A stretch of DNA of 64,000 nt from a virus (IMGVR_UViG_3300027772_001865:17427-81426), one strand, 5' to 3'; numbered from the stretch's first letter, positions 24,055-48,569 are shown. Made by a program: numbers and translations. The notes: generated by a model from the letters alone, not told the origin.

Positions 24055-25298
24055 CACCACCAACTGAAAATTTTTGCATCATTCCCTGGTTTGGCATTGA
24101 AACCACTCCTATAGGTACTGTTAGACCTTGTTGTCTTGCACGTGAGGAAATCATTGATGACAATGGTATTTCTTTTGATCTCCACTCAAGCACATTTGAT
24201 CAAATTCAAAATAGTCAGTACATGAAGGATCTGCGACAACAATTCCTGGACAACAAACGCCCCCCAACATGTGGCAGTTGTTGGAATGTTGAAGTTGCTG
24301 GACACAAGAGCAAACGATTACAAACCTTGGAATCTATTCTTGCTAGACAAGTTAGCGAACAGACCTGGACCACAAACCCTATTCCGTTAAAATATGTTGA
24401 TCTGAAATTGGGCAATATATGTAATTTAAAATGTCGTATATGCGGATCTTTTAGCAGTAGTCAAATTGCCTCCGAAAGTCTAGCAAGTTTGCCGTCACAT
24501 AATGTCAAAGGCTTTCCAATTATTCATGACAAAAAGAACATGAATGAATACAAAATGCTTCGTCAGGGTGCATGGCCCAGGGAAAGTGCTGTGTTTTGGG
24601 ACGAATTAGAAAAAGTACTGGGGCAAATTAAAAAATTTGATATATCAGGCGGTGAGCCTTTCTTGATCGAAGAGCATTTTGAAATGTTGCGTAATATGGT
24701 TGTTAACGGCCACTCACACGATACTGAAATATATTACAACTCAAATGGCACAGTGTATCCCGAGCAAGCTGAGGATATTTGGAAAGATTTTCAAACAGTA
24801 AAAATTGCTCTGAGCCTTGATGACATTGGGGCTAGATATGAATATCAAAGATCCAACGGAAATTGGGACGTGATATTAAGCAACTTGGAAAAGTTTAGAC
24901 AACTGCGAGCAAGGCATGGTAATATTGAACTAGAAGCAGGCTGTACTGTAAGCATATATAATGTGTTATATCTAGTAGAAATACTAGATTGTTTACAAAC
25001 ACAATCTCTTGATTTTGTACACATAAATTTTTTGCATTACAATCCAATGTTGAGCATTGCTAATTTACCTCAGACAATCAAAGATCAAATAATAACTCAT
25101 TTGATCACTGCTAATCAAACTGCCAATCATAATGAAATTTCTGTTGTGATCAATTTTATGCGGCAAGGAAACAGTAAAAATGACATACTAGACACTCTGG
25201 CATACATGAAGCATATTGATCAACTTAGATCAACTCATCTGTGGGATTCTTCTCCTGAACTTGCAAAAATACTAAATTACCAGTATAATATACAATGA
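24051..25298 (+). CDS. Radical SAM protein (twitch-rSAM), close paralog of 21909 gene, 415 aa
   Basis: Shares PIGTVRPCCLA, DLKLGNICNLKCRICGS, GAWPRE and GGEPFxIxEHF with the 21909 gene. Confidence 0.85.
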   Translation: MTPPTENFCIIPWFGIETTPIGTVRPCCLAREEIIDDNGISFDLHSSTFDQIQNSQYMKDLRQQFLDNKRPPTCGSCWNVEVAGHKSKRLQTLESILARQVSEQTWTTNPIPLKYVDLKLGNICNLKCRICGSFSSSQIASESLASLPSHNVKGFPIIHDKKNMNEYKMLRQGAWPRESAVFWDELEKVLGQIKKFDISGGEPFLIEEHFEMLRNMVVNGHSHDTEIYYNSNGTVYPEQAEDIWKDFQTVKIALSLDDIGARYEYQRSNGNWDVILSNLEKFRQLRARHGNIELEAGCTVSIYNVLYLVEILDCLQTQSLDFVHINFLHYNPMLSIANLPQTIKDQIITHLITANQTANHNEISVVINFMRQGNSKNDILDTLAYMKHIDQLRSTHLWDSSPELAKILNYQYNIQ

Positions 25299-27733: not shown

Positions 27734-28790
27734 AATAACTTTAAGAAACACTAACACAGGGGATCTGCTGCCGGTGTATATAGATGTAGAAGATAACAGC
27801 CTAAGTCGTCGTTGGTTAACGGCATTAAATGAATTACTGGAAAAGAATTTCCATTTAGAAAAGAACTACTGTTGGTTTGGCTGGCATGCAGGACCTAGAA
27901 CAGCAGAGTACGTATGTGATCAAATCAATCGATCAATTGCGGCCATCAATGCCGCGGACATGGGCTATCAAATTACAGATCATTTTGATACCATCAACAC
28001 CATTACAGCAGGTGCAGTGGGTGACGGCTTGCCAGGCGGCAAACTCATACACAAAAAACTAAATCAATTGCACCGCTACTTTGAAGACCTACAGGGAGTG
28101 TCGGGTGCAATGAGTCCATTTTACACTCGTGCAGATGCCGCCACACGTTGGCATATTCGTCAGTTAAATTTGCTGTGTCACGAATATGAAAGTCTAGTGC
28201 TGAGCATGCGCAAGGCACACTATGCTCCAGAATGGGTGCGTCCCAGTCAGCTCATGTGCTGGTTAAATGCGCCACGATTTGAACTAGAACCTGAAGACTA
28301 TGAACTGTTTGGCATAGAAACAATCAATCGCAAGTTAGGCGGAGTGTATGTGGGTGTGAACAAAGCAGTGGGCAAACACCACTGGGAAGTGTTTCACGAT
28401 GAAGGTAGAGACAGTCGCATAGACGAATTAACCACAACGACACTAAGAGCACAAACAGAAGCCGCAGGAGATTTTGACATAGAGTGGGCACGAGATCCGG
28501 GCGCTTACCCTTGGCAGATCAAACAGTTGGCACAGTTTCGGGAGTGGCTGATGATCAATGGATTCGATCCTGAAAACAAAGCACTCACTATAGGACACCC
28601 TCAAGTGGCACAAGTGAACTTGATCAAGACATTTGGTACAGACGATGCTGCCACAATCTGGACCATGTTAAATGACTATTTAGATGTGTATAAAATAACA
28701 ACTAGCCAGGCCGGTGCTATATACAACTATCACTGGAGCGATGCTGACTTTGGTGAACGTCAGATACGGTGTATCACAAAAGGACCTTAA
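27720..28790 (+). CDS. Hypothetical protein, about 356 aa
   Basis: Long ORF inside the operon. TTG at 27720 chosen (GGTGG upstream); the alternatives are 27684 and 27696. No family recognised. Confidence 0.65.
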   Translation: MEQIEITLRNTNTGDLLPVYIDVEDNSLSRRWLTALNELLEKNFHLEKNYCWFGWHAGPRTAEYVCDQINRSIAAINAADMGYQITDHFDTINTITAGAVGDGLPGGKLIHKKLNQLHRYFEDLQGVSGAMSPFYTRADAATRWHIRQLNLLCHEYESLVLSMRKAHYAPEWVRPSQLMCWLNAPRFELEPEDYELFGIETINRKLGGVYVGVNKAVGKHHWEVFHDEGRDSRIDELTTTTLRAQTEAAGDFDIEWARDPGAYPWQIKQLAQFREWLMINGFDPENKALTIGHPQVAQVNLIKTFGTDDAATIWTMLNDYLDVYKITTSQAGAIYNYHWSDADFGERQIRCITKGP

Positions 28791-28791
28791 T

Positions 28792-28893
28792 ATGAACTGG
28801 CTCAAAAACTTATACAATAGAATTCGTTTAGAAATTCGATACCGCAAGAAGCTAAAAGAACTGCGCAAACGAGATCCATTTATCTACAAATGA
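28792..28893 (+). CDS. Basic 33-aa micro-protein coupled to the carbamoyltransferase (not in ORF track)
   Basis: MNWLKNLYNRIRLEIRYRKKLKELRKRDPFIYK*. Fills the gap exactly, has an AAGGA SD, and overlaps the 28890 start (ATGA). Confidence 0.7.
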   Translation: MNWLKNLYNRIRLEIRYRKKLKELRKRDPFIYK

Positions 28894-30365
28894 AAATACT
28901 AGGAATTTCAGCAGGGTTTCACGATGCTGCCGCTACTGTGATTAACAATGGTTATATTCTTTTTGCCGGACATAGTGAACGATATTCAAAACAAAAGAAC
29001 GATGCCAATATACACCCAGATCTACTTAAGGATGCACTTGTGTATGGTGTAGATCATGTTGCGTATTACGAGCGTCCCTGGCTTAAACAACTGCGACAGT
29101 GGTATGCAGGACAGGGCCTGGAGTGGGATAAAGTCACGCTGAATCAAGTGTTACAGCAACAGGTCCCAGCGGCTATGTTGTCACATCCTACCACAAGTAC
29201 ACATAATCATCACTTGTGCCATGCGGCAGCAGGATTTCAAACCTCATCCTACGATCGTGCCACAGTGGTGGTAATAGATGCAGTAGGCGAGTTTGACACA
29301 ATAACAATATGGGCAGCAGAATATGATTCAAAAGGCATGGCAAAGTATCGAAAACTTTGGTCACAGCATTATCCACATTCAATTGGACTATTCTACTCTG
29401 CGGCTACTAGCAGTGTTGGCCTACGCCCACTAGACGAAGAATATATCCTAATGGGCATGGCAGCGTATGGTGATGCCACAGCGGCTGTGGGCATGCAAAA
29501 ATTAGTCAAAGACTCTGACCAAATACGATTCTGTGACAATCTACACACCGGCATTGACAGTAAATATCTGCAGGATCTAGAAGAATTTGATATTGCTGCT
29601 GGCACACAAGCCATTGCAGAACAACTAATCATGAGTGTGATGCGCAGAGCACGTGACTTCAAATGGTCCAGCAATTTGGTGTACATGGGTGGGGTTGCTC
29701 TTAACTGTAGCGCCAACAGAAATTTAGGAAAGTTCTTTGATAACATATGGATTATGCCTTGTCCTAGCGACGCTGGCAGTAGCCTGGGCGCGGCAGCATT
29801 GGCTTATGGGAAACAGATACATTGGACCAATGCCTATCTGGGCCATGATATCCCTGGTGATTATCCTGTGGATGATATTATCACTGTCCTGCTACGTGAT
29901 AAAATTGTGGGCGTGGCCAGCGGTCGTGCCGAATTTGGGCCCAGGGCTCTGGGCAATAGATCACTATTGGCAGACCCCCGTGGCGCAGACATAAAGGCAC
30001 GTGTAAATGATATCAAACGACGACAGCAATTCAGACCATTTGCGCCTGTTATTTTAGAAGAACATGCTCATAACTATTTTGACATGCCTTGCAGATTCCC
30101 CAACAGTAGATATATGCAAGTTGTTGCTCGCTGTATACATCCTCACATATTTCCTGCTATCATTCATTATGACCACACTAGTAGGGTACAAACAGTACCA
30201 CCGGATGGTTCTGGAATAAGACAACTGCTAGAAGCATGGTACCGGGCAACAGGTTGTCCCATGTTGCTCAATACTAGTCTAAACATACGAGGCGAACCCA
30301 TGGTAAATGATCGTGCAGATGCTGAACGCTTTGAAGAGTTATACAATGTAAAGGTATGTTCATAA
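28890..30365 (+). CDS. O-carbamoyltransferase, NodU/CmcH/TobZ family, 491 aa
   Basis: GFHDAAA, HHLCHA, GGVALN, GRAEFGPRALGNRSLLADPR, FRPFAP and LLNTSLN. Confidence 0.92.
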   Translation: MKILGISAGFHDAAATVINNGYILFAGHSERYSKQKNDANIHPDLLKDALVYGVDHVAYYERPWLKQLRQWYAGQGLEWDKVTLNQVLQQQVPAAMLSHPTTSTHNHHLCHAAAGFQTSSYDRATVVVIDAVGEFDTITIWAAEYDSKGMAKYRKLWSQHYPHSIGLFYSAATSSVGLRPLDEEYILMGMAAYGDATAAVGMQKLVKDSDQIRFCDNLHTGIDSKYLQDLEEFDIAAGTQAIAEQLIMSVMRRARDFKWSSNLVYMGGVALNCSANRNLGKFFDNIWIMPCPSDAGSSLGAAALAYGKQIHWTNAYLGHDIPGDYPVDDIITVLLRDKIVGVASGRAEFGPRALGNRSLLADPRGADIKARVNDIKRRQQFRPFAPVILEEHAHNYFDMPCRFPNSRYMQVVARCIHPHIFPAIIHYDHTSRVQTVPPDGSGIRQLLEAWYRATGCPMLLNTSLNIRGEPMVNDRADAERFEELYNVKVCS

Positions 30366-30366
30366 T

Positions 30367-31647
30367 ATGGACAATAAAAGAGTTTTCCCAATTAACACCA
30401 ACACAGGGTGTTTGTTAAAATGGGCATGGTCCACAGTGTTTCTTCGCCAGGGCACAAGTTCCAGTTGTCATAGAACAGATCAAGCACCAATACCCCCAGG
30501 AGATTTTTCCAGTTTTCATAACTTGCCTAACAAAGTTGCCGCACGTGAATTGATGTTGCAAGGCGGTTGGCCACAGGGCGGATGTCAGTATTGTGAAAAG
30601 ATTGAAGCCGCAGGAGGCATGAGCGATCGGCAGTATCAACTGCATGCCGGACATGACCATGACCGTACTCCAAGAGAGCTACTTCAAGATCCCACACAAA
30701 CAGAAGTTGTACCCACCATACTAGAAGTGTATTTTAACAATACCTGCAACATGAGTTGCTTGTACTGTGGTAGTCATTTTAGTTCAAAGTGGGAAGAAGA
30801 AAACAAAAGGTTTGGCATGTACGAGAACCAGCCCAAGACCGTGGCATTTGGCTGGGACACCAAACAACCAGACCTAGACTATGATAAGATGCTAGCTGAT
30901 TTCTGGAAATATCTCCACGATAAAGATAGATATCTACACATTAGACAATATCAAATTGCTGGTGGCGAGCCATTTCATCAAGTGGAACTGGAAGCCAGTA
31001 TAGACTTTTGGGATAATCATCCCAATCCAGAACTGACATTTAACTTCATTACCAATTTAAAAGTCACTCCCAAGAAGTTTCAATCCACAATTGACCGACT
31101 GGGTCGCATGGTTGATCAAGGCAAGCTCAAACGTGTGCAAATTAGTTCAAGCCTGGATGCCTGGGGACCGCAACAGGAGTACGTGCGTTGGGGATTAGAT
31201 TTGGCAGAGTGGCAGGAAAACTTTGAATATTGCCTGGACAAGCCATTTATTCAACAGTGTATCAATTCAGCCATCAATCCATTGACTGTAAAAACCATGC
31301 CCGAGTTGATTCAGAAAATGAATGACTGGAATGATCGATGTTCAGACAACAAGCAAATTGCCTACAGCTTTATGACTGTGATGGCACCAAATTGGATGGA
31401 TCCTGCTATCTTTGGCGCAGGCGTGTTTGAACAAGACTTTGAACAAATACTTGCCGCCATGCGAGAAAACACTGACATGGAACGCAGTGCCAAACATCAC
31501 ATGGAAGGCATTGGCCGACAAATTGCTGCCGCGCCACGCAACATCGAGTTGATTAACGGATTAAAAGATTATGTTACTGAACTTGATCGCCGCAGAGGAA
31601 CCCAATGGCAGGAACTATTTCCCTGGCTTGATCAGGACTGGAAATAA
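30367..31647 (+). CDS. Radical SAM protein with N-terminal twitch-like module, 426 aa
   Basis: CLLKW...SSCHR...CQYCE, then CNMSCLYC and IAGGEP. Confidence 0.85.
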   Translation: MDNKRVFPINTNTGCLLKWAWSTVFLRQGTSSSCHRTDQAPIPPGDFSSFHNLPNKVAARELMLQGGWPQGGCQYCEKIEAAGGMSDRQYQLHAGHDHDRTPRELLQDPTQTEVVPTILEVYFNNTCNMSCLYCGSHFSSKWEEENKRFGMYENQPKTVAFGWDTKQPDLDYDKMLADFWKYLHDKDRYLHIRQYQIAGGEPFHQVELEASIDFWDNHPNPELTFNFITNLKVTPKKFQSTIDRLGRMVDQGKLKRVQISSSLDAWGPQQEYVRWGLDLAEWQENFEYCLDKPFIQQCINSAINPLTVKTMPELIQKMNDWNDRCSDNKQIAYSFMTVMAPNWMDPAIFGAGVFEQDFEQILAAMRENTDMERSAKHHMEGIGRQIAAAPRNIELINGLKDYVTELDRRRGTQWQELFPWLDQDWK

Positions 31648-32915
31648 GGCGCCCACTCGGGCACAACATCTGTCAGCTTCTTTTTGCTCACAGTGTCTTC
31701 AAGTCGAATATGCTCAATGAACTGTGGCAGATAAGCAGGTTCATATGGTGTTGATTCTATCACACTGATCACACGATCCACCAACTGGGTATAGTAAGTT
31801 TCATATATGGCCGTTGTGTTTGCAAAACGTTCTCGGCCTGCACGTAACCTACTCAGTGCAATTTCACGTAGCTCAGGAGGAACAGCACCTTGACCCAGGT
31901 GATCAACTCTAAACACAGGACTGATGTTGATAAAGCTACCAGCTACATCTTCAGGATTGTGCGGACCAAACCCTGACTCGTAACACCAGTTGATAAAGTC
32001 CATGGCACTGAACACATTTATACCAGTTAACACATAGTTAACAACTGTGCTGATGTATTCATGATCCATCAGTTCCAGGGCATTAACACTTAGGCTGGCC
32101 CATTTGGCACCTCTACGTTGGTACTCAATTACATCACCAATGCCATCAATGCTGACATTGTAGATGACCTGTTTGAACTTACGAAACTTTTCATCCAGTG
32201 CAGATGCACTGCTACTAGCATTTGTCAAAAGTGTAATGAGAATATTTTTGGCTAGATCTTTTTCTATTAGATAGTCCATTATTTCATGTACTTGGCTTTG
32301 CAGTGCAGTTTCACCGCCAGTGAAGTTGATCAATTGTACTTTGTCCAGCACTGAATAAAAGTCTGGATCAGCCACATTGAGTACAATTTTTTCTTGTTTC
32401 TTCATCACTTGCACTTCAAATGTTTGACGCTTGCTAGATGCACCACCAGCACACATCACACAAGAATAGTTGCAGTAATTGCTGGGATAATAGTCCAGGG
32501 TAATAATGTCATGCACATTGTAGTCATCATTGATGATTTGGTAAACTTCTGACACAATGTCTGACTGCAAAAACTGTGCAAGAAATTTATTATTCTGTTG
32601 CCTAGGGCTTGACACGCCAGACTTTTCGTTATAACTACAAGATCTGCAGTCATAGATGTCGTGAAACTTGTCTTGAATAAAATCTTGTCGCATTTGTTTC
32701 CATACTGGTGCATTGCGTGTGTCATGTATACTGTCGTTTGTGATGTTCCATTTGTTCATGTCATCGGCCATGACAATACTGCAAGGACGCACACTGTTGG
32801 GCATGCCTTCTTGAGCAATGGGAATGACATTGTTGGTTTGATAAAAAGCCCCAAAGAATGGATACAAACAAATGTGCTCTCCTAATTCTTGATATATGTT
32901 GTCTAAGTCGTTCAT
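31632..32915 (-). CDS. Radical SAM protein (twitch-rSAM), 427 aa
   Basis: CLYPF...VRPCS...CRSC, then CNYSCVMC and FTGGET. Confidence 0.8.
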   Translation of the reverse strand: MNDLDNIYQELGEHICLYPFFGAFYQTNNVIPIAQEGMPNSVRPCSIVMADDMNKWNITNDSIHDTRNAPVWKQMRQDFIQDKFHDIYDCRSCSYNEKSGVSSPRQQNNKFLAQFLQSDIVSEVYQIINDDYNVHDIITLDYYPSNYCNYSCVMCAGGASSKRQTFEVQVMKKQEKIVLNVADPDFYSVLDKVQLINFTGGETALQSQVHEIMDYLIEKDLAKNILITLLTNASSSASALDEKFRKFKQVIYNVSIDGIGDVIEYQRRGAKWASLSVNALELMDHEYISTVVNYVLTGINVFSAMDFINWCYESGFGPHNPEDVAGSFINISPVFRVDHLGQGAVPPELREIALSRLRAGRERFANTTAIYETYYTQLVDRVISVIESTPYEPAYLPQFIEHIRLEDTVSKKKLTDVVPEWAPYFQS

Positions 32916-33970
32916 TGAATTCTTTCTTTACAAAGAGCAATCAAGCTGGGATTGAAATTGATTGTGCTATCGGGCACGTCTACATGTTGTTTATAAATTG
33001 CCAGTAGATTGTTTACAGTAACAGCATGAAGCTCATGATCAACATTGCCAATTACATCGTGTTCAGTATAATTACTCCAGGTGCCCCAATCTTCTAACCT
33101 ATTGATAACTCCTCGGAATTGATAGCGATAACACAGGTCTACAAAATTTTGCATGTCGTTGTAGTTGTCTTTTTGCAGGACAAATTTTAATAGTACTTCT
33201 GACTTGGTCTGATCACACAATGTTCTCAAGTAATCAAAGTTCTTGATTAGTTGTGTAAATGTTCCGCCAAGCCTCACTTGCTCGTACACCTCAGCTGACC
33301 CAGCATCTATACTGATAAAATACTGTGTGATGTTGTTAATAATAGGAGAATCAGTCAATTGCTTTTCTAACAACAGCCCGTTTGTAAACAGTCTTATGGT
33401 TTGATTTTTCTTGGGTACAAATCTATGTATCAACGGGCGCATGATGTGGCTGGCCAATGGGTCACCATTTCCGGACATTACTATGTGTATCGGGTGCTCA
33501 AACTTTTCCAGCATGTCCACCAGGTGGTTGACCTGTGCTAGTTTACGATCAAAATCGCTGCCACTGCTGAGCATCACAGCAGATGGTCTGCAACTGGGGC
33601 ATCGTAGATTACAGCTTTCATCTATGTTGATTGAAAGATAATAGTCCTGTTGATGCACAGATTTATCCAGTACACCACACCGGTCTACAGCACAGTGAGT
33701 GAACTCTCCAGAATCTATGTCTTGTTGCAATAGTTTAGCAGACGGACTAACCCATACTTGATTTAGGTCAGTAAAATCAGATATGTTGCCCACTGATATT
33801 GGCAACCAAGCTTCGCATGAACACACAAAGCATTCTCCAGTCCAGTCTACCACAAGTTGAGTTGATGGAGCATTGCAATGATTGTTGATTTTTAATTTTA
33901 AATCTTTGTTTCTCAGTATTGATTTATAACTGTGTTGGTTTTGTATGGGAATAGTAAATTGATAACTCAT
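32912..33970 (-). CDS. Radical SAM protein, 352 aa
   Basis: CNLRCPSC and SGNGDP, with an N-terminal Cys cluster CNAP...CFVCSC...C..DRC. Start moved to 33970 (ATGA coupling). Confidence 0.8.
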   Translation of the reverse strand: MSYQFTIPIQNQHSYKSILRNKDLKLKINNHCNAPSTQLVVDWTGECFVCSCEAWLPISVGNISDFTDLNQVWVSPSAKLLQQDIDSGEFTHCAVDRCGVLDKSVHQQDYYLSINIDESCNLRCPSCRPSAVMLSSGSDFDRKLAQVNHLVDMLEKFEHPIHIVMSGNGDPLASHIMRPLIHRFVPKKNQTIRLFTNGLLLEKQLTDSPIINNITQYFISIDAGSAEVYEQVRLGGTFTQLIKNFDYLRTLCDQTKSEVLLKFVLQKDNYNDMQNFVDLCYRYQFRGVINRLEDWGTWSNYTEHDVIGNVDHELHAVTVNNLLAIYKQHVDVPDSTINFNPSLIALCKERIQ

Positions 33971-34983
33971 TTGCATCCCCCGCACATGTTGTTACATGCT
34001 ACCAATCTGCCTTCAGCATACGTGGGTTTGTCCCAGGTCTTTTCAACTTGATCAAACCATTCTAAACATTCAGCCATGGTGTACTTCAATGCGTTGTTGC
34101 GTGATATCAGCGGACGCAGTTGTGTGTTGACCACATTGAGATAGTTGGCACTACCGTGCCCGTAAGTTTTAGGGTTGAATCCAAGATAGCAACACGGATA
34201 CACTTCTCCAATGCTGTTGATATAAACTGTTTTGGTTTCAATGGCCTCACAAGAAATAGGAGTTTTAATTGGCTCAGGACATCCTGCAACATCTGCTATT
34301 GCATCAGGCCTAGCATACCGTTCATAAATGGTGTCAAAGTTTGTGAGATCTGTTGTGCCCATCACAAACACCAGTTTCTTATCAGAATCAAATACAGGTC
34401 CTACATTGCGTTTGTGATCAATCAATTCAAACCGTTCAAACCCCATGTCTATGCTGAGTTGCTCGGCTTGAGTTTGCTGATGTCTATTGTGATCAAAGTC
34501 AATCATTTTCCAAATGGCATGTCCGCCGGCAGCAATGAAAGTCTGTGCATTTCGAATCACAGTTGAATACATGGTATTGCGTCTGTATATGCTGTGAGTA
34601 TCCTCTAATCCGTCTAGACAAAAATATACCACGGCTAGTTTGGCCAGCTGTGTCCAGAACACACGATCCCTGGCACCGCCGTTGGTGTTTATAGTTATAA
34701 GAGCCTGATTGCCGAGATGTTGTTTGAAATATTCAAGTATTGGTATGGCGTCAAAGTTCATAACAATATCGCCGAAGTTACCATTTATTGTTATTTTATC
34801 AAGATGATTTAAAAACACAGGAGTGAATATCTTCTGTGCTTCTGCCAAGGTCATTGAGTGTTCTTCATAGCCATCATTGTGCGGATATCCGCACAAGTTA
34901 CGAGGACACTTGGGACATGCAGCATTGCACTCGCTGGATATTTCCAGATGTACTTTCCTAATGTCCTCTACTGCGTACAACAT
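33967..34983 (-). CDS. Radical SAM protein with C-terminal SPASM/twitch domain, 338 aa
   Basis: CNAACPKC and NGNFGD, with C-terminal C...INSIGEVYPCC...CNNMC. Confidence 0.85.
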   Translation of the reverse strand: MLYAVEDIRKVHLEISSECNAACPKCPRNLCGYPHNDGYEEHSMTLAEAQKIFTPVFLNHLDKITINGNFGDIVMNFDAIPILEYFKQHLGNQALITINTNGGARDRVFWTQLAKLAVVYFCLDGLEDTHSIYRRNTMYSTVIRNAQTFIAAGGHAIWKMIDFDHNRHQQTQAEQLSIDMGFERFELIDHKRNVGPVFDSDKKLVFVMGTTDLTNFDTIYERYARPDAIADVAGCPEPIKTPISCEAIETKTVYINSIGEVYPCCYLGFNPKTYGHGSANYLNVVNTQLRPLISRNNALKYTMAECLEWFDQVEKTWDKPTYAEGRLVACNNMCGGCK

Positions 34984-34986
34984 GCT

Positions 34987-36012
34987 TTACAGGTATGTTT
35001 CTAGGCCGCCACGACGACGTAGATCTTGTGTACAGCAAGAGATGCCACCATCCCAGAAGTAGCTGTGGCGCAGTTCGCTGATGATGGGGTTAATTCTATG
35101 CTTTTTGCAATAGTCAAACACTTCTTTGTTGTATGAACTAAAGATAACGTTCTCTTCGTCTAGTGCCAAGCAGTTGACATCAAACACAGTTTCGGCAACA
35201 AAGCCGGTCCATTTGTTTAGATACTTGTCCACAAAGTCTGTAAACTCAGCAGTAGGAGTTTGCCCCTGTACGTACCAAGCCCCTGGGCTTTGCTCGTACT
35301 TGAACTTGCCCACTTCCATGGCAGCCCAGATTGAGCTATCCCAGATCTTGCATACGTCCCAGCCCGGGAAGTCTTTGGCCAGATCCAAGTTAACATCGTG
35401 CTTGCTGGATAACAACACACCGGGCTTGAGAATAGCAAACACAGCATCGCCGTGACCGTCTGTGATAGCTTCGTGAATACGATAACCTTCGCCTAGTACA
35501 TTGTCCACAATCCACTTGGTTTGATCAGGACGCAAAAAGTCTGAGTTGTCAAAAAACACATCACGACCCACACGCACAATACAACTGGCACTTGCACCGT
35601 TTAATATACAATCTTCGTCCCAGCGACTATTGTGTGGATTAACAACTTGATCACCAAAGTCGGCACAGATATCATCCAGCTCTTCCATGTTGAGCACACG
35701 CAGTAGTTTGTCGCCTAATGTGATTTGCCAATCGCGTGGTGTCAGTGGCGGCAGCGGAGCACCTCCTCCTTCGGTCTGATGCCAGATAAACGAGTCTTTA
35801 CCAGGCAAGTTAGGGCGACGTACTCGAGCACCGTACTTCTCAATTGTCTTGCTCAAGTTGTCAAGATCTTCTTCAGTTTCGGCAAGAATTTGTTGTAGTT
35901 GATTACGCACTTGAGCATTGTCAATGAAATCAAAGTAATCTGGTGAGTAGGCGCGACCCACAATGACCTCTTCAAGAGGTTGCCAGCTGGTGTAAGAGTT
36001 AATTTTGTTCAT
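34987..36012 (-). CDS. Amidinotransferase (glycine/inosamine-phosphate amidinotransferase family), 341 aa
   Basis: WQPLEEVIVG, PRD, FFDNSD, HGD (catalytic His) and GGISCCTQDLRRRG (catalytic Cys). Confidence 0.85.
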   Translation of the reverse strand: MNKINSYTSWQPLEEVIVGRAYSPDYFDFIDNAQVRNQLQQILAETEEDLDNLSKTIEKYGARVRRPNLPGKDSFIWHQTEGGGAPLPPLTPRDWQITLGDKLLRVLNMEELDDICADFGDQVVNPHNSRWDEDCILNGASASCIVRVGRDVFFDNSDFLRPDQTKWIVDNVLGEGYRIHEAITDGHGDAVFAILKPGVLLSSKHDVNLDLAKDFPGWDVCKIWDSSIWAAMEVGKFKYEQSPGAWYVQGQTPTAEFTDFVDKYLNKWTGFVAETVFDVNCLALDEENVIFSSYNKEVFDYCKKHRINPIISELRHSYFWDGGISCCTQDLRRRGGLETYL

Positions 36013-37153
36013 GTAAGTTCTTTAATAAAGTATTTAATCTGTCCAGTTTCGTGGATTGAAATAACTGCTGGTTGTGCAGTATATCATCACAACAGCGTAG
36101 GAACATGCCGTGTGGATCTTGTTGGATGAGTTCAAGAGTATGTTTTACTTTTAACCACCGTTTAGTGTTGTCAGTTTCTAAATCGTATGTGTTGTCCAAT
36201 ACACTATCAAATGTTCTGTAACCTAGATCACGTAGGCATTGCAAACTACCTGTGGGTGCAACTAACACAAATGGTTGTGCATTCTTTATGGGTTTGAATG
36301 TTTTTTCTGTCAGAAATGTGCCACCTGAACCATCAGCATCAAAGTGTGTTTCGATTACAACATTGAAGTATGCATCTGTATAATGTTCAGGCACAGTGAG
36401 TGCATGGTTGTTGTGTTCATCCACTGTTAACGTATCGCATCGGTAGGGTCCGTTCTCTATGAATACATCTACAGCAACATTAGGCAGGCGTTCTATTGGA
36501 TTGTCTGCAGGATTATCGCCTAAAGGTAGTTCAGTGTTGTAACTCCATAAACTCTGTGCCAACATATTACTTTGTAGCAGGTCTGCCATTACAACTGCTC
36601 GCCACCATTTGTGTGTTCTGCTTAGTGCAACAAATGTGTATGGTCTTGATCTAGTATGAAACTCAACAGGTGCTACATACTGATTCCTGCGCCAAAACAA
36701 CAATTCATGATCAGGAAAATACGCAAAGCCTGGAATTGATTTGGCCGCGGTGTTGCCTGAAACAAACCTATAGCAGTTGATAGACAAGTTATGTTGCGCA
36801 CACAAGTAATCCAATCGTAGTTTGATGTTGTGCGGATTATCGCCTTCGTGATAGTAAAATATCACTGTGACCAGGCCTTGCTGAATTCTTTGCAGTAATG
36901 AGTCAGCAACAAGAGCAAAGTAATCAATAGCAAAATCAAAAAAACCCAAGCCAATTACATAATAGCCATTACCTTGGGTGATTAGATTGTATTGGTACCC
37001 ATGATCGTCCATGTGCCCGAATAATTCTGCAGGAGTGGTGTGCGGCCAATGTTGTCCAAACTCTCTCCAGGCCTGTGTGTACGGTCTAGCTTGGTGTTGT
37101 GCTAGCGCAGGATACGGACGACCTTTAACAATTGAATCAGCTACGAAGTTCAT
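35999..37153 (-). CDS. GT-B/GT10-like putative glycosyltransferase, 384 aa
   Basis: FNVVIETHF...FLTEKTFKPI...QPF...LRDLGYRTFD...DNTYD. Confidence 0.5.
   Translation of the reverse strand: MNFVADSIVKGRPYPALAQHQARPYTQAWREFGQHWPHTTPAELFGHMDDHGYQYNLITQGNGYYVIGLGFFDFAIDYFALVADSLLQRIQQGLVTVIFYYHEGDNPHNIKLRLDYLCAQHNLSINCYRFVSGNTAAKSIPGFAYFPDHELLFWRRNQYVAPVEFHTRSRPYTFVALSRTHKWWRAVVMADLLQSNMLAQSLWSYNTELPLGDNPADNPIERLPNVAVDVFIENGPYRCDTLTVDEHNNHALTVPEHYTDAYFNVVIETHFDADGSGGTFLTEKTFKPIKNAQPFVLVAPTGSLQCLRDLGYRTFDSVLDNTYDLETDNTKRWLKVKHTLELIQQDPHGMFLRCCDDILHNQQLFQSTKLDRLNTLLKNLHEQN
36031..36036 (-). promoter_or_regulatory. TAAATA late-promoter-like motif
   Basis: TAAATA 18 nt upstream of the amidinotransferase ATG, inside the upstream gene. 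Confidence 0.35.
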
Positions 37154-38258
37154 TCAGCATGTTAATCAGTTCTGGCCACAGGATGTTTTCAAGACCATTG
37201 CCATAAAAGTGTTCAAAGTTGTGTTCTACAATTGGCAAGCAAGCGCGATGTATTTGTTGACGTTCTGCTACACTAAGATTATCTAGATCTTTAAGTAGTT
37301 TAGTAACCTTTTCAACACGCTTGATGTCATCCGTTTCTTCATCATAGCTTTCGTCAAATACATCACCAAAGGTTCGGAATCCATAATTACGCATGTACTC
37401 CAAACTGTGTGCAGGAGCTACCAACACAAACGGCATTTCTAATGCAATTGCTTTGAATGTTTTTTCGGTAATGTGCAGTCGTTTGCCAAAGTACACAGTC
37501 TCTGTAGGCACATACACCAAACTGTCTTGTGCTTCTGTGTAGTTGCCTAACCAGCACGATGTCATAATTTGTGTCTCTTCTCCAGCAAACAATCTTGGCA
37601 ACTCTGCTGTCAAGAACACTTGCTCTATGTCAGGATATATGTTATTATACTTGAGTGCTATTTGCGAAATGTCCACATGCTCATAAGGACATATTCTAGG
37701 AGCCGAAATATAATTGTTGTCTAATTCATGTTTGAATACATTATACAAAAACAAAACTCTATGATCGCGTTTGCCCGCAACAATACGATTTGGGCTCATG
37801 AACGTATGAGTAGGCGATCTATCAGCGGCCCTGGGAATCAGAAAAGTTTTGTCGTAGCCGCGAAACCAATCTTTGCATGCCCATCCGTGATAAAAGTAGT
37901 AATGAGGCTTCCAACCATATATATTATTAAGTTCGTCAACGTATTCTCCCCTTTCACTAACAATCACATGTCCATTGACACCTCTGCTCTCTGCGTTAGG
38001 CGGTTTGCTCCAATATTGAAGATCTTCAGTCCTAAGTTTAACATCGTCAAACAGCGATTTATGAAGATCCAGGTGTATGGGTTCTTGATCATGCAAAAAT
38101 ACAAAATCAATTTCTTGAATATCATCTCTACCGTAGTTGAACAATGCATCCGGGTCACTGCGTCCTGGCGGATCACAAAAAAATGTTCTGGTGCCAGGGA
38201 TGTGTTGATTAATCCAGGGCCAAAAGGTATTATTATAAATTTCGTCTATTCTAATCAT
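37137..38258 (-). CDS. GT-B/GT10-like putative glycosyltransferase, 373 aa
   Basis: VPTETVYF...ITEKTFKAI...MPF...MRNYGFRTFG...DESYD. Confidence 0.5.
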   Translation of the reverse strand: MIRIDEIYNNTFWPWINQHIPGTRTFFCDPPGRSDPDALFNYGRDDIQEIDFVFLHDQEPIHLDLHKSLFDDVKLRTEDLQYWSKPPNAESRGVNGHVIVSERGEYVDELNNIYGWKPHYYFYHGWACKDWFRGYDKTFLIPRAADRSPTHTFMSPNRIVAGKRDHRVLFLYNVFKHELDNNYISAPRICPYEHVDISQIALKYNNIYPDIEQVFLTAELPRLFAGEETQIMTSCWLGNYTEAQDSLVYVPTETVYFGKRLHITEKTFKAIALEMPFVLVAPAHSLEYMRNYGFRTFGDVFDESYDEETDDIKRVEKVTKLLKDLDNLSVAERQQIHRACLPIVEHNFEHFYGNGLENILWPELINMLNELRS

Positions 38259-41200
38259 GTTTGATATTTTTTATTCAGGTAAGAAGCCGGGATTGTTTGC
38301 TCATGAGTGCGAGGCTGATAGTATTGAGCATGCACAACAATTGAGTCGTACAAGGTTCTTTTGGTTTGTAAATTACTTATCTGACTACACAGGCTTTGAT
38401 TTTCTTTGGGAGCCTGTACCGTGGCAAGCACAACAACGACACGCATGGTTAGACCAGTATCAATTTGATTCGGGTGTGTATCTTGTTCCTAAAAAAGGAT
38501 ATGCAGAAACAAATTATCATGCAGAGCCTCGAGTACATAGATTGCCTGATATTGATTATTGGCACATACCCAAATGGATTGATCCTGCCAGTATAGATTT
38601 TAGATGGGCGCCCGATCCCACTGATCCTCCTTACATATATGAGTTTCCTGTAGAATGGGATTGGGATAGAGTTGGTGGCCCGGAATATAGAATCCCAGGA
38701 GCAACTGATCGCAAGTATATAGACACATTTGTTACTCGCACACAGTCAGACAGAGACATGTGGAAAGTGTACGACAATGTATCCAGCACTGATACTGTAT
38801 TCAATTGGCATCCAAATCCGTTTGATCCGCCAATGATATATGTGTTTGGCAATCAGCATTGGCCAGCAGAAATACGAGCCAGTGTAGAATATCATGTACC
38901 AGGTGCCACTGTAAAAAAATACATGGACGATATACGCACAACACGATTGTCAGACAAGAACAAGTTTACGTGTTTGTATCCTTGTGAGTTTGACTGGTCC
39001 TGGGAACCAAATCCAGGAGATCCGCCCTACATCTATGTTTTTGGAAATCAGTGGTGGCCTGCAGAAAAGATGGCCACAGTTGAATATCATGTGCCGGATG
39101 CAATAGAGCGTAAGTTCATGGATCAGCCTGCGACCTTACTAAGCAACAAAAACAATTGGTCGGTGCCCGATAATGTTGATCCATTAAGTATTGATTATTC
39201 ATGGGTACCTGATCCTGGAGATCCACCTTATACCTATGTGTTTGGTAACCAGCACTGGCCTGGAGAAATAATGCCTACTGTGGAATATCATGTTCCGGGC
39301 GCAACTGAATGCAAATACATAGATTATATTCGGATAACACTTACAGAATGCATGGATAACTGGGAAATACTGGAAGAAATTGCACATGATGAATGGGATT
39401 GGAGTTGGATACCAAATCCTTTAGATCCTCCTTACATATATGTGTTTGGCAACCAATGGAACCCACCAGAATTTAAAGCCAGTGTCAAGTATGTTGTCCC
39501 GGGCGCCTCAGAAGTCAAGTACATGGATCGTCGAACACGTAGACTTCCGACTCCAAAATTGTTCAGACATAATCTAGCTGTTAGCAAGTTTGATTATTCC
39601 TGGGAACCAAATCCGTTTGATCCTCCCATGATGTATGTGTTTGGTAATCAGTGGAACTCAGCTGTACTAGAACCCACAGTGGTGTACAATGCAGGAGGCA
39701 ACGAAATCAAATATGTAGATGATATCATTGCCACAGTAGCACAAGATGTCAGCGCCTGGGAGTTGTTGGATGACATTGAATCATTTGATTACTCATGGAG
39801 ACCCAATCCTACAGATCCTCCTTACATATATGTGTTTGGTAATCAATGGCTTACCCCCGAACAGCGTCCTGCACTAAGATACTGTATACCAGACGCAACT
39901 GATATCAAGTACATGGATCATCCGCGAGCACAACGTCGTGGTGATCACACACGCTTTGTTCAGCACTATCCGGCATCGTTTAACTGGTCCTGGGAACCTG
40001 AACCTGGCAGCCCACCTTATAACTATGTGTTTGGTAATCAGTATTATTCTGCAGAAGTCATGCCCACGATAGAATATCGCATGAGTGGCGCAACAGAACG
40101 CAAGTACATGGATATTCCTGCACAATTATTACCGCATCACAGTAATCATTGGCACACACTTGTGGACTGTGAATGGGACTATACATGGCGCCCAGAACCA
40201 GGATCGCCGCCTTACATCTATGTGTTTGGTAATCAGTGGTGGTCAGCAGAAAAGATGCCTACATTAGAGTACCATATGGTCGGTGCCACTGAACGAAAGT
40301 ACATGGAAGGCCCATTGGCTACACTACCAATAGACATGTCTAATTGGAGTATTCCAAAACATATTGATTTGACTGACATGGATTTTTCATGGTGTCCTGA
40401 TCCTGGCGAACCGCCTTACATCTATCAGTTTGCAACACAACACCAAAAGACTGGTGGCCCACAGTATCGCATGCCAGGCGCTACAGAGTTCAAGTATGTG
40501 GACATGATGCGAGCTGAAGTTAAGAAAGAAGCCGCCCCTATATTTGAAATAGATCACTTGGATGGTGCCGCAGGGCAAATTCCTGATGTAGTTAAGCGAG
40601 TGCGTTACTTTGACAACTATCGTGATACGCTAATACGCTTGGCCAAGAGTCTAGTAGGTGAATATGAACATGTATGGGTGTGTAGCAGTATATGTGATTA
40701 CACTGACTTTGACTTTTCATGGCATCCAGAAACATGGCAATCAACAATGTTGCATGTGTTTCCATCAGACAAAGAAAAGTTTGGAGACACATTCTACATG
40801 CATGTGCCTACATTTGCTGAACGTGCAGAAAAGAAAGCCTTGTTGGAATGGTATAGTGTAAACTATGTGCCACGCCGGAGTGTGCCACGTAGACCCATGC
40901 CAGTGATCCTACACACAGCAGATTCGCATGTAGATGCAGTTAAAAACACAACATGGGCAGGACCACTTGCTACATTTACCACAACAGATTATGTTCCTGG
41001 CAACATGATTACTGTTCCGCTCTGGCGTAAAGAAACCAAAACTATTGTTCCATTAAGTGCAGGTGCATCAAGTGTTATTGTACCAAGAGTAGCAGTAGGC
41101 GACGTTCGTACACAGTTATATGATTATGCTTACATAGACAAAACACGTCGTATGTTAAAAGATCATCCCCTGGACATTGTGTTTATTTCGAATGGCGAAC

Positions 41201-41868
41201 CCTATGCTGAGTTTAACTATGAACACTTGAAGTGGGCTGTGCAAATGGAAGGGTTAGACTGCAATCACATTCATCATTCAAAGGGTGTGAATGGTCGTGT
41301 GGCAGCATATCAAGCAGCCGCTAGATTAAGCACAACACCTTGGTTCTTTGCTGTGTTTGCCAAGCTAGAAGTTGATCATAGATTTGATTGGTACTGGCAA
41401 CCTGATCGTATGCAACAACCCAAGCATTACATCTTCCACGCACACAATCCTGTGAATGGTCTAGTGTATGGACACCAGGCCATGATTGCATATAACAAGA
41501 AGATGACATTAGAAAACACAGGAGAAGGTCTGGACTTTACCATGGATCAACCACACGAAGTTGTGCCTATCATAAGTGGCACAGCCAACTACACTGAATC
41601 ACCTTGGATGGCCTGGCGTACAGCATTCCGCGAAGTACTTAAACTCAAGCACAGCCTGCCAGATGTAGAAAACGAATACAGACTCAACATGTGGCTCAGC
41701 GATGCCGGTGAAGTTAAAAATGCAGAGTGGAGTCGCTACGGAGCAGAGGATGCTGTAGAGTACTACGACGAAGTAGGTGGGGATTTTGCGGCTCTCAAGA
41801 AGAGCTACGAATGGGATTGGCTTGCGACGTATGCGTTTATGAAACGCAGTCTAACACCTGATCGCTGA
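38257..41868 (+). CDS. Large repeat protein with C-terminal glycosyltransferase-like domain, 1203 aa
   Basis: Ten Trp/Pro repeats of about 65 aa. The C-terminal DIVFISNGEP...GVNGRVAAYQAAA...NGLVYG...AWRTAFRE domain is homologous to the 15481 gene. Confidence 0.7.
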   Translation: MFDIFYSGKKPGLFAHECEADSIEHAQQLSRTRFFWFVNYLSDYTGFDFLWEPVPWQAQQRHAWLDQYQFDSGVYLVPKKGYAETNYHAEPRVHRLPDIDYWHIPKWIDPASIDFRWAPDPTDPPYIYEFPVEWDWDRVGGPEYRIPGATDRKYIDTFVTRTQSDRDMWKVYDNVSSTDTVFNWHPNPFDPPMIYVFGNQHWPAEIRASVEYHVPGATVKKYMDDIRTTRLSDKNKFTCLYPCEFDWSWEPNPGDPPYIYVFGNQWWPAEKMATVEYHVPDAIERKFMDQPATLLSNKNNWSVPDNVDPLSIDYSWVPDPGDPPYTYVFGNQHWPGEIMPTVEYHVPGATECKYIDYIRITLTECMDNWEILEEIAHDEWDWSWIPNPLDPPYIYVFGNQWNPPEFKASVKYVVPGASEVKYMDRRTRRLPTPKLFRHNLAVSKFDYSWEPNPFDPPMMYVFGNQWNSAVLEPTVVYNAGGNEIKYVDDIIATVAQDVSAWELLDDIESFDYSWRPNPTDPPYIYVFGNQWLTPEQRPALRYCIPDATDIKYMDHPRAQRRGDHTRFVQHYPASFNWSWEPEPGSPPYNYVFGNQYYSAEVMPTIEYRMSGATERKYMDIPAQLLPHHSNHWHTLVDCEWDYTWRPEPGSPPYIYVFGNQWWSAEKMPTLEYHMVGATERKYMEGPLATLPIDMSNWSIPKHIDLTDMDFSWCPDPGEPPYIYQFATQHQKTGGPQYRMPGATEFKYVDMMRAEVKKEAAPIFEIDHLDGAAGQIPDVVKRVRYFDNYRDTLIRLAKSLVGEYEHVWVCSSICDYTDFDFSWHPETWQSTMLHVFPSDKEKFGDTFYMHVPTFAERAEKKALLEWYSVNYVPRRSVPRRPMPVILHTADSHVDAVKNTTWAGPLATFTTTDYVPGNMITVPLWRKETKTIVPLSAGASSVIVPRVAVGDVRTQLYDYAYIDKTRRMLKDHPLDIVFISNGEPYAEFNYEHLKWAVQMEGLDCNHIHHSKGVNGRVAAYQAAARLSTTPWFFAVFAKLEVDHRFDWYWQPDRMQQPKHYIFHAHNPVNGLVYGHQAMIAYNKKMTLENTGEGLDFTMDQPHEVVPIISGTANYTESPWMAWRTAFREVLKLKHSLPDVENEYRLNMWLSDAGEVKNAEWSRYGAEDAVEYYDEVGGDFAALKKSYEWDWLATYAFMKRSLTPDR
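38599..40503 (+). repeat. 10 tandem in-frame repeats: W.W.P.P.(D/S/E)PPYIYVFGNQW...EY..PGATE.KY(M/I/V)D
   Basis: Ten copies counted in the translation. The DNA core TATGTGTTTGG(T/C)AA(T/C)CA recurs about every 195 nt. Confidence 0.9.
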
Positions 41869-42946
41869 TGTATTCAACTTCGAGGTCTGTTAATTCAGGA
41901 TAGATAGGCAAGCTGAGTACACGCCGAGCAAGACTAGAACTTGCTGCCAACATATCTGGACCTGGGTATGCACGATACAATGGCATTTCGTGCAAGGGAT
42001 TTACATAATGCACTCGTGTTTCTATTTTGCGTAAAGCAAGATTTGCTCTCAAGGTATCGCGGCCATCAACATCTATAACAAACTTATGCACAGCATGATT
42101 GTGTGCATTAGAGTCGTTGATCAAACAACGTATGTCTGCATGTTTGAAACGCTCGCACCAATGATTGGCTATCTTTTGTCTACGTGCTTGCCACTGATCA
42201 ATGTGTTTTGCTTTGACCAGCATGTGCGCACAGTCTAGTTCACTCATGCGGCTGTTGGTACCAGGATTACGATGCGTAGGCTTACCATTGTCTCTCCAAG
42301 CTCTTGCATATTCTGCTAGATCCAAATTGTCCGTGACCACAGCACCACCGTTGCCATAACAAGCAAGGTTCTTCATGGGATCAAAGCTAATTGCGCCACC
42401 ACCTCGCCCGGTTCTTTGACCATCTGCTGCCAGCCAATGTTGTGCGGCATCCTCAATTATAACAGTATCGTGTCGTAGCCATTCATTCCATGCACGAAGA
42501 TTACCGTGATGAGTCATTGACGCACCATACAAGCCAACTAGCACTACAGCTTGATAACTCAAGTCATGTGGAATTTTATTAACATCTATTAGGCCATGTA
42601 TGTCTGTGTCAATGATGTGTATATCCCAGCCTGCCCGTATAAATGCATTGGCAGTGGCCACATAGGTCATTGAAGGAATTAATGCAGTAGGAGGATGTGG
42701 CACAGGAGATTCCATGGCCCAGTAACTGGCTAGAATCTCAAGTGCGTGGGTACCTGAGTGACAAGTTACTGCATAGCGCACACGATTTTTTTTAGCAAGC
42801 CAAGATTCAAACTCAACAGTGTTGTTACCGTTCATGAGTTGGCCACTTCGAAGTACTTCGTCAGTAGCGTCTAAAATCTCTGTGCGGAGATTGTTATACT
42901 GCTTTCGGAGACCAGTAAACGGAATTGTTAAGCCAGTTGAAGTAAT
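41837..42946 (-). CDS. DegT/DnrJ/EryC1/StrS PLP-dependent sugar aminotransferase
   Basis: SGTHAL, IIEDAAQ, SFDPMKNL (PLP Lys), GTNSRMSE and LSLPIYP. The family N-terminus continues in frame above the ATG at 42835. Start placed at the ATT at 42946 (inferred). Confidence 0.85.
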   Translation of the reverse strand: MTSTGLTIPFTGLRKQYNNLRTEILDATDEVLRSGQLMNGNNTVEFESWLAKKNRVRYAVTCHSGTHALEILASYWAMESPVPHPPTALIPSMTYVATANAFIRAGWDIHIIDTDIHGLIDVNKIPHDLSYQAVVLVGLYGASMTHHGNLRAWNEWLRHDTVIIEDAAQHWLAADGQRTGRGGGAISFDPMKNLACYGNGGAVVTDNLDLAEYARAWRDNGKPTHRNPGTNSRMSELDCAHMLVKAKHIDQWQARRQKIANHWCERFKHADIRCLINDSNAHNHAVHKFVIDVDGRDTLRANLALRKIETRVHYVNPLHEMPLYRAYPGPDMLAASSSLARRVLSLPIYPELTDLEVEYISDQVLDCVS

Positions 42947-43862
42947 TTTGAAATCCCTCTTCTACATCCACTTTGGGATCATAACCTAGAATTGTTCTGG
43001 CACGGTCAATGTTTAATGCACCACGTGACGGAAAGTCTGCGTCTTTGTCTCGGCACTCAATAGTACCCTTGCCAACAATTTTAACAATCATTTCTGCGGC
43101 TTCTAACAAGCTCACACTATGTGATTTAGTAATGTTATAGGTGCTGTTACGACTCATGATACGAGTAGCAGCCGCCACAATGCCATCTGCGGCATCATCC
43201 ACATAGGTAAAGTCTAGCGTCTCCCCTGCCCCATTAACTCGGAGAACGCCTCCTCGCATGGCTCCGAGCATAAATTTTGCCACCACTCGGTCTTCCACAT
43301 CCAAGGGGCCGTATACAGCACTAGGCCTAATAACAGCGTAATCAAAAGCGCCGCGGCGATGGTAGTCTTTGACAATGTCTTCTCCAGTTAATTTCATAAT
43401 GCCATATTGGCCAATGGGTTTACAGTCGTAGTCTTCTTCTACTTGATCTTCAAAGTCACCATATACCATTGAACTTGAAATGTACACAACACGTTCCACA
43501 CCGTGCTTTTTGGCACTCTCGCAAACGTTGATCAAGCCCTCCATCATCACACGACTACCCCAGGCAGGGTTGGCATTGACAACTTTCTGTCGGGGAAAAC
43601 TTGCCATGTGGATGATAACTTCAGGTTTGTGTTTGGCCACTAGCCAATCAAAGTTGTCAGCATCGGTAATATCAACGTGATAGATATTTTTGCCTGATAT
43701 CTTCTTTAGCCGTTCCGCCATCAAGTAGTCAAGTTCTGCTTGTGGAATGATTCCGTAGTTGGTACGTGTGTCTGTTATGATCACTTCGTGTTCTAGAGCT
43801 TCTAATCGTTGTACCACGTTGTGGCCAATGAGCCCTAGGCCGCCTGTTACTAATATTTTCAT
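42894..43862 (-). CDS. NAD-dependent nucleotide-sugar epimerase/dehydratase (extended SDR), 322 aa
   Basis: ILVTGGLGLIG, ISSSMVYG, YGIMK (YxxxK) and RPSAVYGP. Start moved to 43862 (ATGA coupling). Confidence 0.9.
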   Translation of the reverse strand: MKILVTGGLGLIGHNVVQRLEALEHEVIITDTRTNYGIIPQAELDYLMAERLKKISGKNIYHVDITDADNFDWLVAKHKPEVIIHMASFPRQKVVNANPAWGSRVMMEGLINVCESAKKHGVERVVYISSSMVYGDFEDQVEEDYDCKPIGQYGIMKLTGEDIVKDYHRRGAFDYAVIRPSAVYGPLDVEDRVVAKFMLGAMRGGVLRVNGAGETLDFTYVDDAADGIVAAATRIMSRNSTYNITKSHSVSLLEAAEMIVKIVGKGTIECRDKDADFPSRGALNIDRARTILGYDPKVDVEEGFQNYFNWLNNSVYWSPKAV

Positions 43863-48543: not shown

Positions 48544-48569
48544 ATATGCCTTTCTAATTTGTATAACGT

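Follow-up and report, generated by a model that had tools for sequence, protein, structure and literature searches.

Gene content of the island

The viral contig IMGVR_UViG_3300027772_001865 carries, directly behind its baseplate and tail genes, an island of ~30 kb in which genes for an amidinotransferase homologue, an O-carbamoyltransferase, a DegT-type sugar aminotransferase and an epimerase-type short-chain dehydrogenase/reductase (SDR) are set among glycosyltransferase and radical SAM genes. The window (that is, the whole stretch of 64,000 nucleotides that was analysed) comprises bases 17427-81426 of this 81-kb IMG/VR contig, whose completeness CheckV estimates at 23%. Relatives that share the locus reach 320-364 kb and form a clade of T4-like jumbo phages; three of these genomes are complete, with terminal repeats. 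The 15-kb region gave no match in a megablast search against GenBank phages. Quite possibly, though this is put forward tentatively, the island is a soluble system for building and tailoring a glycan, with amidination and O-carbamoylation taking place in the cytoplasm, probably on a virion protein.

All four enzyme genes singled out in a first-pass annotation of this DNA are where it had placed them (Table 1). Its account passed over six genes lying between the enzymes, namely four radical SAM and two glycosyltransferase genes; the island as a whole has ten radical SAM genes, and its upstream half comes after the virion structural genes. Among related loci with enough flanking sequence, the SDR gene is found in 60 of 60, the DegT gene in 58 of 60, both glycosyltransferase genes in 56-60 of 60 and the carbamoyltransferase gene in 65 of 65.

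Table 1. Genes of the island and its immediate flank (window coordinates; g numbers are the gene names used in the text)
Coordinates	Strand	Product	Basis or occurrence
13292..27733	+	Upstream half of the island: glycosyltransferase-like genes and a further six radical SAM genes, of which one is double-domain	Conserved in relatives
27684..28790	+	Conserved 368-aa protein, upstream of the carbamoyltransferase	65/65 related loci with enough flank; no assignment from Pfam, PHROG and Atlas searches
28890..30365	+	O-carbamoyltransferase, NodU/CmcH/TobZ type, 491 aa	Pfam Carbam_trans_N and Carbam_trans_C
30367..31647	+	Radical SAM with N-terminal twitch domain (N_Twi_rSAM) (g30367)	NF033640, 225.8 bits
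31632..32915	-	Radical SAM with N-terminal twitch domain (N_Twi_rSAM) (g31632)	NF033640, 202 bits
32912..33985	-	Radical SAM with N-terminal SPASM-like Fe-S module (g32912)	Pfam SPASM at residues 37-103, then Radical_SAM at 123-283
33967..34983	-	Radical SAM, core N-terminal, weak C-terminal SPASM (g33967)	phrog_21308, 1.7e-17; NCBIfam radical SAM matches
34987..36012	-	Amidinotransferase homologue, virus-specific 'FWDGGxHC' subfamily	phmmer, family profile, fold
35999..37153	-	GT-B glycosyltransferase, GT10-like, invariant TEK; start overlaps upstream gene (g35999)	Model and Foldseek
37137..38258	-	Paralogous GT10-like GT-B glycosyltransferase; heads the glycosyltransferase-glycosyltransferase-amidinotransferase unit (g37137)	Paralogy; 60/60 relatives
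38257..41868	+	1203-aa repeat protein, glycosyltransferase-like end domains	Translation; 49/60 relatives
41837..42835	-	DegT/DnrJ/EryC1/StrS sugar aminotransferase (pyridoxal phosphate, PLP), N-terminally short	Pfam PF01041, 198.5 bits (cut-off 19.8)
42894..43862	-	Extended SDR, NDP-sugar 4-epimerase type, not 4,6-dehydratase type	Pfam Epimerase, 151 bits
43859..44188	-	Conserved protein of 109 aa located between ThyX and SDR, ATGA-coupled to the latter (g43859)	Most relatives, 40-96% identity; no family match
44209-44880	-	ThyX	

The amidinotransferase homologue

The amidinotransferase homologue has no Pfam match. It is related by phmmer to StrB1 (1.7e-13), with AGAT, HsvA and SxtG matched as well, and the profile of its family reaches 1e-31 to 1e-34 against SxtG, AGAT, HsvA and StrB1. 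A structural model (pLDDT 88.5) returns SxtG, AGAT, StrB1 and HsvA in Foldseek with E values of 1.4e-20 to 6.5e-20, as against 2.8e-10 or weaker for the hydrolases ADI and DDAH. The predicted fold is a pentein alpha/beta-propeller that is nearer to the transferases than to the deiminases and DDAH.

What the phage protein has in common with StrB1, AGAT, SxtG and HsvA is the pentein fold (TM score 0.65-0.67), the Cys nucleophile, the H-x-D pair and the PRD Asp. On the other hand, it is 19-20% identical to these enzymes and about equidistant from all four, and it has Ser141 where they have the triad Asp. C326, H187, D189 and D94 (the Asp of PRD) align with known catalytic or guanidino-binding residues and are invariant in 42 sequences; R333 is another invariant residue. 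The triad Asp of the FDAA motif (D254 of AGAT, D179 of StrB1) is aligned with Ser141 by profile, at a position that varies across the viral subfamily; members of the FWDGG subfamily have an invariant Asp of their own, Asp321. The gene can be thought of as encoding an amidinotransferase homologue, for which arginine-dependent transfer to an amine is predicted from sequence and model.

Carbamoyltransferase, aminotransferase and SDR

The carbamoyltransferase scores above the Pfam cut-offs with both its domains (Carbam_trans_N, 120 bits; Carbam_trans_C, 162 bits), and has the Kae1-like N-terminal domain with HxxxH and the YrdC-like C-terminal domain of the NodU/CmcH/TobZ O-carbamoyltransferases. 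Its motifs read HHxxH, GPRALGNRS, FRPFAP, HYDHTSRVQTV and NTSLNIRGEP. The nearest solved relatives are NovN (2.5e-49) and then GdmN and TobZ (~1e-37), with which it shares both domains and all hallmark motifs, but it is shorter than these enzymes (576-702 aa) and stands in a viral context. Its score of 133 bits is far under the NodU equivalog cut-off of 1000.

In the DegT protein the PLP Lys lies in SFDPMK, aligned with SFYPGK of DesV, and an EDAAQH motif with the cofactor-binding Asp is present; the N-terminus is ~25-60 residues shorter than those of solved homologues. The nearest of these are DesV (1.2e-34), a Gln-scyllo-inositol transaminase (2.9e-34), QdtB and WbpE, and DesV, QdtB and WbpE are C-3 sugar aminotransferases.

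The SDR begins at 43862 with an ATG (MKILVTGG), which is also where all the PDB alignments begin, and has the GxxGxxG (GGLGLIG), SSS and YGIMK motifs of an extended SDR of the NDP-sugar (nucleoside diphosphate sugar) epimerase class. Its active-site segment reads SSSMVYGD, the GalE pattern, and the T-D-E acid/base residues of 4,6-dehydratases are absent. The best solved match is the 6zl6/6zla family (3.5e-25), followed by GalE and UXS (UDP-GlcA decarboxylase), with dehydratases scoring lower. We take the 6zl6/6zla family to be UDP-GlcA 4-epimerase. Assignment of the SDR as a 4,6-dehydratase of RmlB or Gmd type is rejected in view of the SSSMVYGD motif and its nearest relatives. Two further SDRs of a complete relative (G001) that were examined are also epimerase-type (SSSAATYGE and SSSACIYP), and the earlier proposal that the SDR supplies a keto sugar is not supported by these motifs. 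In that genome a GalE-type SDR gene adjoins a short DegT-like open reading frame (L183:6315-7848), and a GDP-mannose-3,5-epimerase-like SDR gene lies with a radical SAM gene of the N-terminal SPASM type beside the large terminase gene (L184:6568-11029). The first-pass statement that catalytic motifs are intact in all four enzymes thus holds for the carbamoyltransferase and DegT, but not for the triad of the amidinotransferase, nor for the dehydratase function ascribed to the SDR.

Enzymes of these kinds occur together in aminoglycoside clusters (DegT/StrS aminotransferases, a twitch-domain radical SAM dehydrogenase, StrB1, TobZ and GT-B glycosyltransferases), where the radical SAM dehydrogenase is BtrN, and all proteins of the island are soluble. 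This raises the possibility that the cluster makes a diffusible small molecule resembling an aminoglycoside or aminocyclitol. Such a product is very unlikely here: no dehydroquinate synthase/2-deoxy-scyllo-inosose synthase or inositol-1-phosphate synthase is present in the complete relatives, no exporter was found in the island and no kinase among the annotated genes, and the genes form a fixed core block adjoining the tail genes of a lytic-type jumbo phage. In a search for cyclitol chemistry, neither PF01761 nor PF01658 had a match in the three complete relatives or the contig of the window itself, and the cyclitol option of the earlier proposal (streptidine or bluensidine) is rejected in view of these absences.

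Glycosyltransferases, radical SAM enzymes and the repeat protein

The glycosyltransferase-like genes g35999, g37137, g17773 and g23116 are paralogous, with a shared ...ET...TEKTFKP... motif in which E283-K284 are invariant. The model of g35999 (pLDDT 87) has the GT-B fold; its top Foldseek match is the H. pylori GT10 alpha1,3-fucosyltransferase 2nzw (E 1.3e-4, TM 0.41), followed by T4 beta-glucosyltransferase and SdgB. For g37137 there is an Atlas lead to GT10, at a score giving good but not decisive confidence. Neither g35999, g37137, the radical SAM protein g31632 nor the glycosyltransferase family profile A2 has a PDB sequence match; the glycosyltransferase-like genes are without a Pfam match as well, and PHROGs assign no function to these or to the small conserved genes.

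The match of g35999 to T4 beta-glucosyltransferase, together with the fact that ThyX shares a transcription unit with SDR and DegT, could be taken as a sign of hypermodified phage DNA, its bases being glycosylated, aminated or amidinated by these enzymes. We consider this highly improbable. A ThyA-family dCMP/dUMP hydroxymethylase was looked for and is absent from the three complete relatives and from two others at 89% and 92% completeness, TGT/DpdA is absent from the complete three, ThyX implies ordinary dTMP, and the match to beta-glucosyltransferase is one of generic GT-B similarity (TM 0.33-0.37).

Both twitch-domain radical SAM proteins, g30367 and g31632, exceed the curated NF033640 (N_Twi_rSAM) cut-off, which is set at 170 bits. 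The other two radical SAM genes between the carbamoyltransferase and the amidinotransferase are of restricted distribution, g32912 being present in 16 of 80 relatives and g33967 in 4 of 80.

The 1203-aa protein consists of ~ten W/P/Y-rich repeats of ~65 aa (W.P.P.DPPYIYVFGNQ...Y.VPGA..KY.D) between its glycosyltransferase-like end domains, and its C-terminal part resembles g15481 (15481-16413). It has no family match; a role as scaffold, as acceptor or as processive transferase is conceivable.

None of the proteins of the island has a transmembrane segment, which argues against a self-contained system for a host-surface polymer. The usual view of glycosyltransferase clusters in T4-like marine phages (PMC7029224) would have the island alter the host envelope (lipopolysaccharide or capsule), for example to block superinfection, by way of the host's lipid-carrier and export machinery. 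Cationic guanidino groups would change surface charge, and the Campylobacter phage CP220 (see below) has a PAP2-type phosphatase near its cluster. Against this, ~30 kb of island specify no transmembrane protein, flippase, polymerase or initiating phosphoglycosyl transferase, and an action on the envelope is distinctly unlikely. The change of surface charge suggested at first pass is likewise disfavoured as a host-surface effect, no membrane, export or lipid-carrier protein being encoded.

Transcription units and gene order

Transcription units are deduced here solely from strand and gene overlaps; consensus promoter and terminator scans are at chance level (50 against 45 expected, and 16 against 14.7, respectively). 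The carbamoyltransferase gene is part of a long plus-strand operon of radical SAM and glycosyltransferase genes. Two glycosyltransferase genes open a second unit, whose genes overlap tightly; the amidinotransferase gene is the last conserved one in it and overlaps the second glycosyltransferase gene at its end. The third unit runs from ThyX through g43859 to the SDR and DegT genes.

At 38256-38258 the divergent g37137 and 1203-aa repeat genes (minus and plus strand, respectively) overlap in their start codons. There is no intergenic DNA between them, so that both promoters must lie within coding sequence. The 3' ends of the repeat-protein gene and the DegT gene overlap by 32 nt. The segment between the convergent amidinotransferase and carbamoyltransferase genes (30366-34986) is a variable insertion site: the spacing of the two genes is 3-4205 bp in 65 relatives and largest, at 4.6 kb, in the window, where the site carries four radical SAM genes (30367-34983) that are absent from most relatives.

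Related gene sets in other phages

Gene sets of this kind have been recorded before. In the Campylobacter phages CP220 and CPt10, five radical SAM genes and a putative glycine amidinotransferase gene form a swappable cluster (Timms et al. 2010; PMC2853527). In the CP220 annotation, baseplate hub genes are followed by four radical SAM genes (with one hypothetical gene among them), a further hypothetical gene, the amidinotransferase, another radical SAM gene and two glycosyltransferase genes. The likeness to the present island is that of a T4-like phage with a radical SAM-amidinotransferase-glycosyltransferase cluster right behind its baseplate genes. The differences are that the CP220 protein CPT_0086 is distant (23% identity; hhalign probability 99.6%) and retains the canonical 'DAA' Asp along with GGGxHC, and that the annotated cluster is without carbamoyltransferase, DegT or SDR.

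The second precedent is Synechococcus phage S-SCSM2R. Its ORF266 is a member of the FWDGG subfamily (31% identity) that likewise lacks the triad Asp and stands beside KdsA/KdsB and glycosyltransferase genes; the ORF266 product has been detected in purified virions (PMC12801897). A separate set, ORF301-310, comprises glycosyltransferases, a DegT-like gene, a radical SAM gene, an amidinotransferase, a GT2 and 2-oxoglutarate (2OG) oxygenases. S-SCSM2R differs from the present phage in its heavy use of 2OG oxygenases and its one radical SAM gene in place of ten, and its ORF309 keeps the canonical FDAAN. The authors labelled these 'antibiotic synthesis genes', without assays (PMC12801897).

In pelagi- and cyanomyophages a hypervariable host-recognition cluster with glycosyltransferases and radical SAM cassettes lies beside the tail-fibre genes (PMC7029224). 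The present island differs in having a core that is constant within the clade and a single variable insertion site. The combination of amidinotransferase, radical SAM and glycosyltransferase recurs in three unrelated phage lineages.

The island is thus a variant of a gene set noted in phages since 2010, and demonstrated new chemistry is not claimed for it. The novelty asserted at first pass needs to be divided accordingly: phage amidinotransferase genes beside radical SAM and glycosyltransferase genes were reported in 2010 (PMC2853527) and 2025 (PMC12801897), but the literature searched holds no biochemical characterisation of a phage amidinotransferase.

A proposed pathway and the question of the acceptor

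The glycan-building and tailoring pathway suggested at the outset would start from NDP-sugars of the host, an input suggested by the absence of any sugar nucleotidyltransferase from the three complete relatives. The GalE-type SDR would interconvert sugar epimers. A keto group might come from a 4-keto intermediate of the host, or from a radical SAM enzyme acting as a BtrN-like dehydrogenase, and DegT would convert the keto sugar to an amino sugar. The GT10-like GT-B transferases would put sugars on an acceptor in the cytoplasm, for which a virion protein of the tail or baseplate is the likeliest candidate. The amidinotransferase would pass the amidino group of arginine, through a thiouronium on Cys326, to a primary amine of the sugar or glycan to yield a guanidino group, and the TobZ/NovN-type enzyme would O-carbamoylate a sugar hydroxyl via carbamoyl-AMP.

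The grounds for this proposal are gene identities, folds, motifs, synteny and co-conservation, from which every substrate, the order of the steps and the target are inferred, as is the link between DegT and the amidinotransferase. A virion protein as the bearer of a glycan made in the cytoplasm is favoured by the absence of starter enzymes, by the site of the island beside the tail genes and by the association of ORF266 with virions (the absences are observations on complete genomes and do not constitute positive evidence for a virion target). Of the earlier proposal of a decorated amino sugar, the product itself stands as reasonable, four genuine enzyme families being co-conserved among glycosyltransferases, but the cyclitol, the dehydratase step and direct coupling of DegT to the amidinotransferase are unsupported.

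Several observations weigh against the proposed pathway. Its substrates are predicted ones. The four enzyme genes are spread over three transcription units. With the SDRs being epimerase-type, the phage encodes no recognisable enzyme that would form a keto sugar for DegT. Loss of the triad Asp means that catalysis by the amidinotransferase may differ from that of its characterised homologues. The pattern of conservation also enters here. Among at least 150 viral contigs the amidinotransferase keeps 83-95% identity, and with 87% identity to its counterpart in G001 it ranks second in conservation among the 38 genes shared by the window and that genome; DegT (57%) and g35999 (46%) are far below it. 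This higher conservation fits a fixed, perhaps non-sugar, acceptor.

The remaining points concern the wider subfamily. Outside the close clade, relatives of the amidinotransferase drop to 30-42% identity. The FWDGGxHC motif is found in at least 600 viral stretches of IMG/VR as against 15 contigs of metagenome-assembled genomes in ~185,000 species genomes; the subfamily is almost purely viral. Homologues of the window's genes were counted within 10 kb of subfamily members at 72 diverse viral loci of at least 12 kb. Radical SAM genes are near the subfamily member in 26 of the 72, GT10-like genes in 10, SDR genes in eight and carbamoyltransferase genes in three; a DegT gene is near in none, and 46 loci have no radical SAM homologue. 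These counts imply that the recurrent partner of the amidinotransferase across phages is radical SAM and not an aminotransferase. In view of them and of the separate transcription units, the direct step from DegT to amidinotransferase proposed at first pass is not sustained. Many members of the subfamily lie outside any sugar context, with auxiliary-metabolism genes (ribonucleotide reductase, psbA, GTP cyclohydrolase) as neighbours. A recurrent cassette joins a GNAT/ATE_C-like gene (arginyl-transferase fold), DUF6614 and an amidinotransferase-like gene with no sugar genes.

The strongest rival explanation follows from the same evidence: the amidinotransferase would act independently of the sugar genes, either forming some small guanidino product such as guanidinoacetate, homoarginine or, in the manner of HsvA, an amidinated polyamine, or converting the lysine side chains of a protein of the phage or the host, and its place in the island would be one of synteny alone. 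The main argument for it is the frequency with which viral neighbourhoods of the subfamily are those of ordinary auxiliary metabolism, together with the missing DegT and the loci devoid of radical SAM. The cassette suggests amine or amino-acid chemistry. The much greater conservation of the amidinotransferase than of the glycosyltransferases and DegT is in keeping with such an acceptor, as is the virion association of S-SCSM2R ORF266 (PMC12801897). HsvA, structurally as close as the other homologues, is a polyamine amidinotransferase by the title of its PDB entry. Against it, the amidinotransferase gene of this clade overlaps the end of a glycosyltransferase gene and is always found beside carbamoyltransferase, radical SAM, DegT and SDR genes, and the amidinotransferase-radical SAM-glycosyltransferase combination recurs in three unrelated phage lineages. 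On balance a non-sugar acceptor is on the unlikely side, while deserving serious consideration.

The tailoring of a glycan on a virion protein can be put in a more specific form, in which the virus-specific FWDGGxHC amidinotransferase places guanidino groups on a tail or baseplate glycan, radical SAM enzymes oxidise positions of it and the TobZ-like enzyme adds carbamoyl. This version is rather doubtful. To our knowledge neither a viral amidinotransferase activity nor a virion with a guanidino-glycan has been described before, and this version would supply both. Phages bearing a guanidino- and carbamoyl-substituted virion glycan would have a kind of surface chemistry for which antibiotics and toxins are so far the known sources, with possible consequences for recognising hosts and evading their defences. 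Aquatic viral metagenomes are very rich in members of the subfamily, and its cultured carrier, S-SCSM2R, makes the question testable.

Further observations on the subfamily and the window

The cassette of GNAT/ATE_C-like, DUF6614 and amidinotransferase-like genes is found at L142:9235-11101, at L168:9241-11026 and at similar viral loci. Three distant homologues of the amidinotransferase have only unannotated phage-like genes around them. Contigs of bacterial metagenome-assembled genomes (L095, L096 and L100, which are Bdellovibrio-like, and L101, of the Chloroflexota) have amidinotransferase-like genes with three to six radical SAM homologues. In L095 a glutamate-synthase domain and an LD-carboxypeptidase adjoin the radical SAM/amidinotransferase cluster and give no clue to the acceptor; as genes of cellular housekeeping they partly support a chromosomal location of the set in Bdellovibrio-like bacteria.

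Beyond ThyX, the window encodes a MoxR-type AAA ATPase and a DUF2201/VWA protein (a CobS/CobT-like pair) at 47257-49741, the ATPase being the most conserved gene in common with G001 (89%). At 51216-53355 lie genes for a homologue of the TctC family of periplasmic binding proteins and for a protein of the Asp/Asn beta-hydroxylase family.

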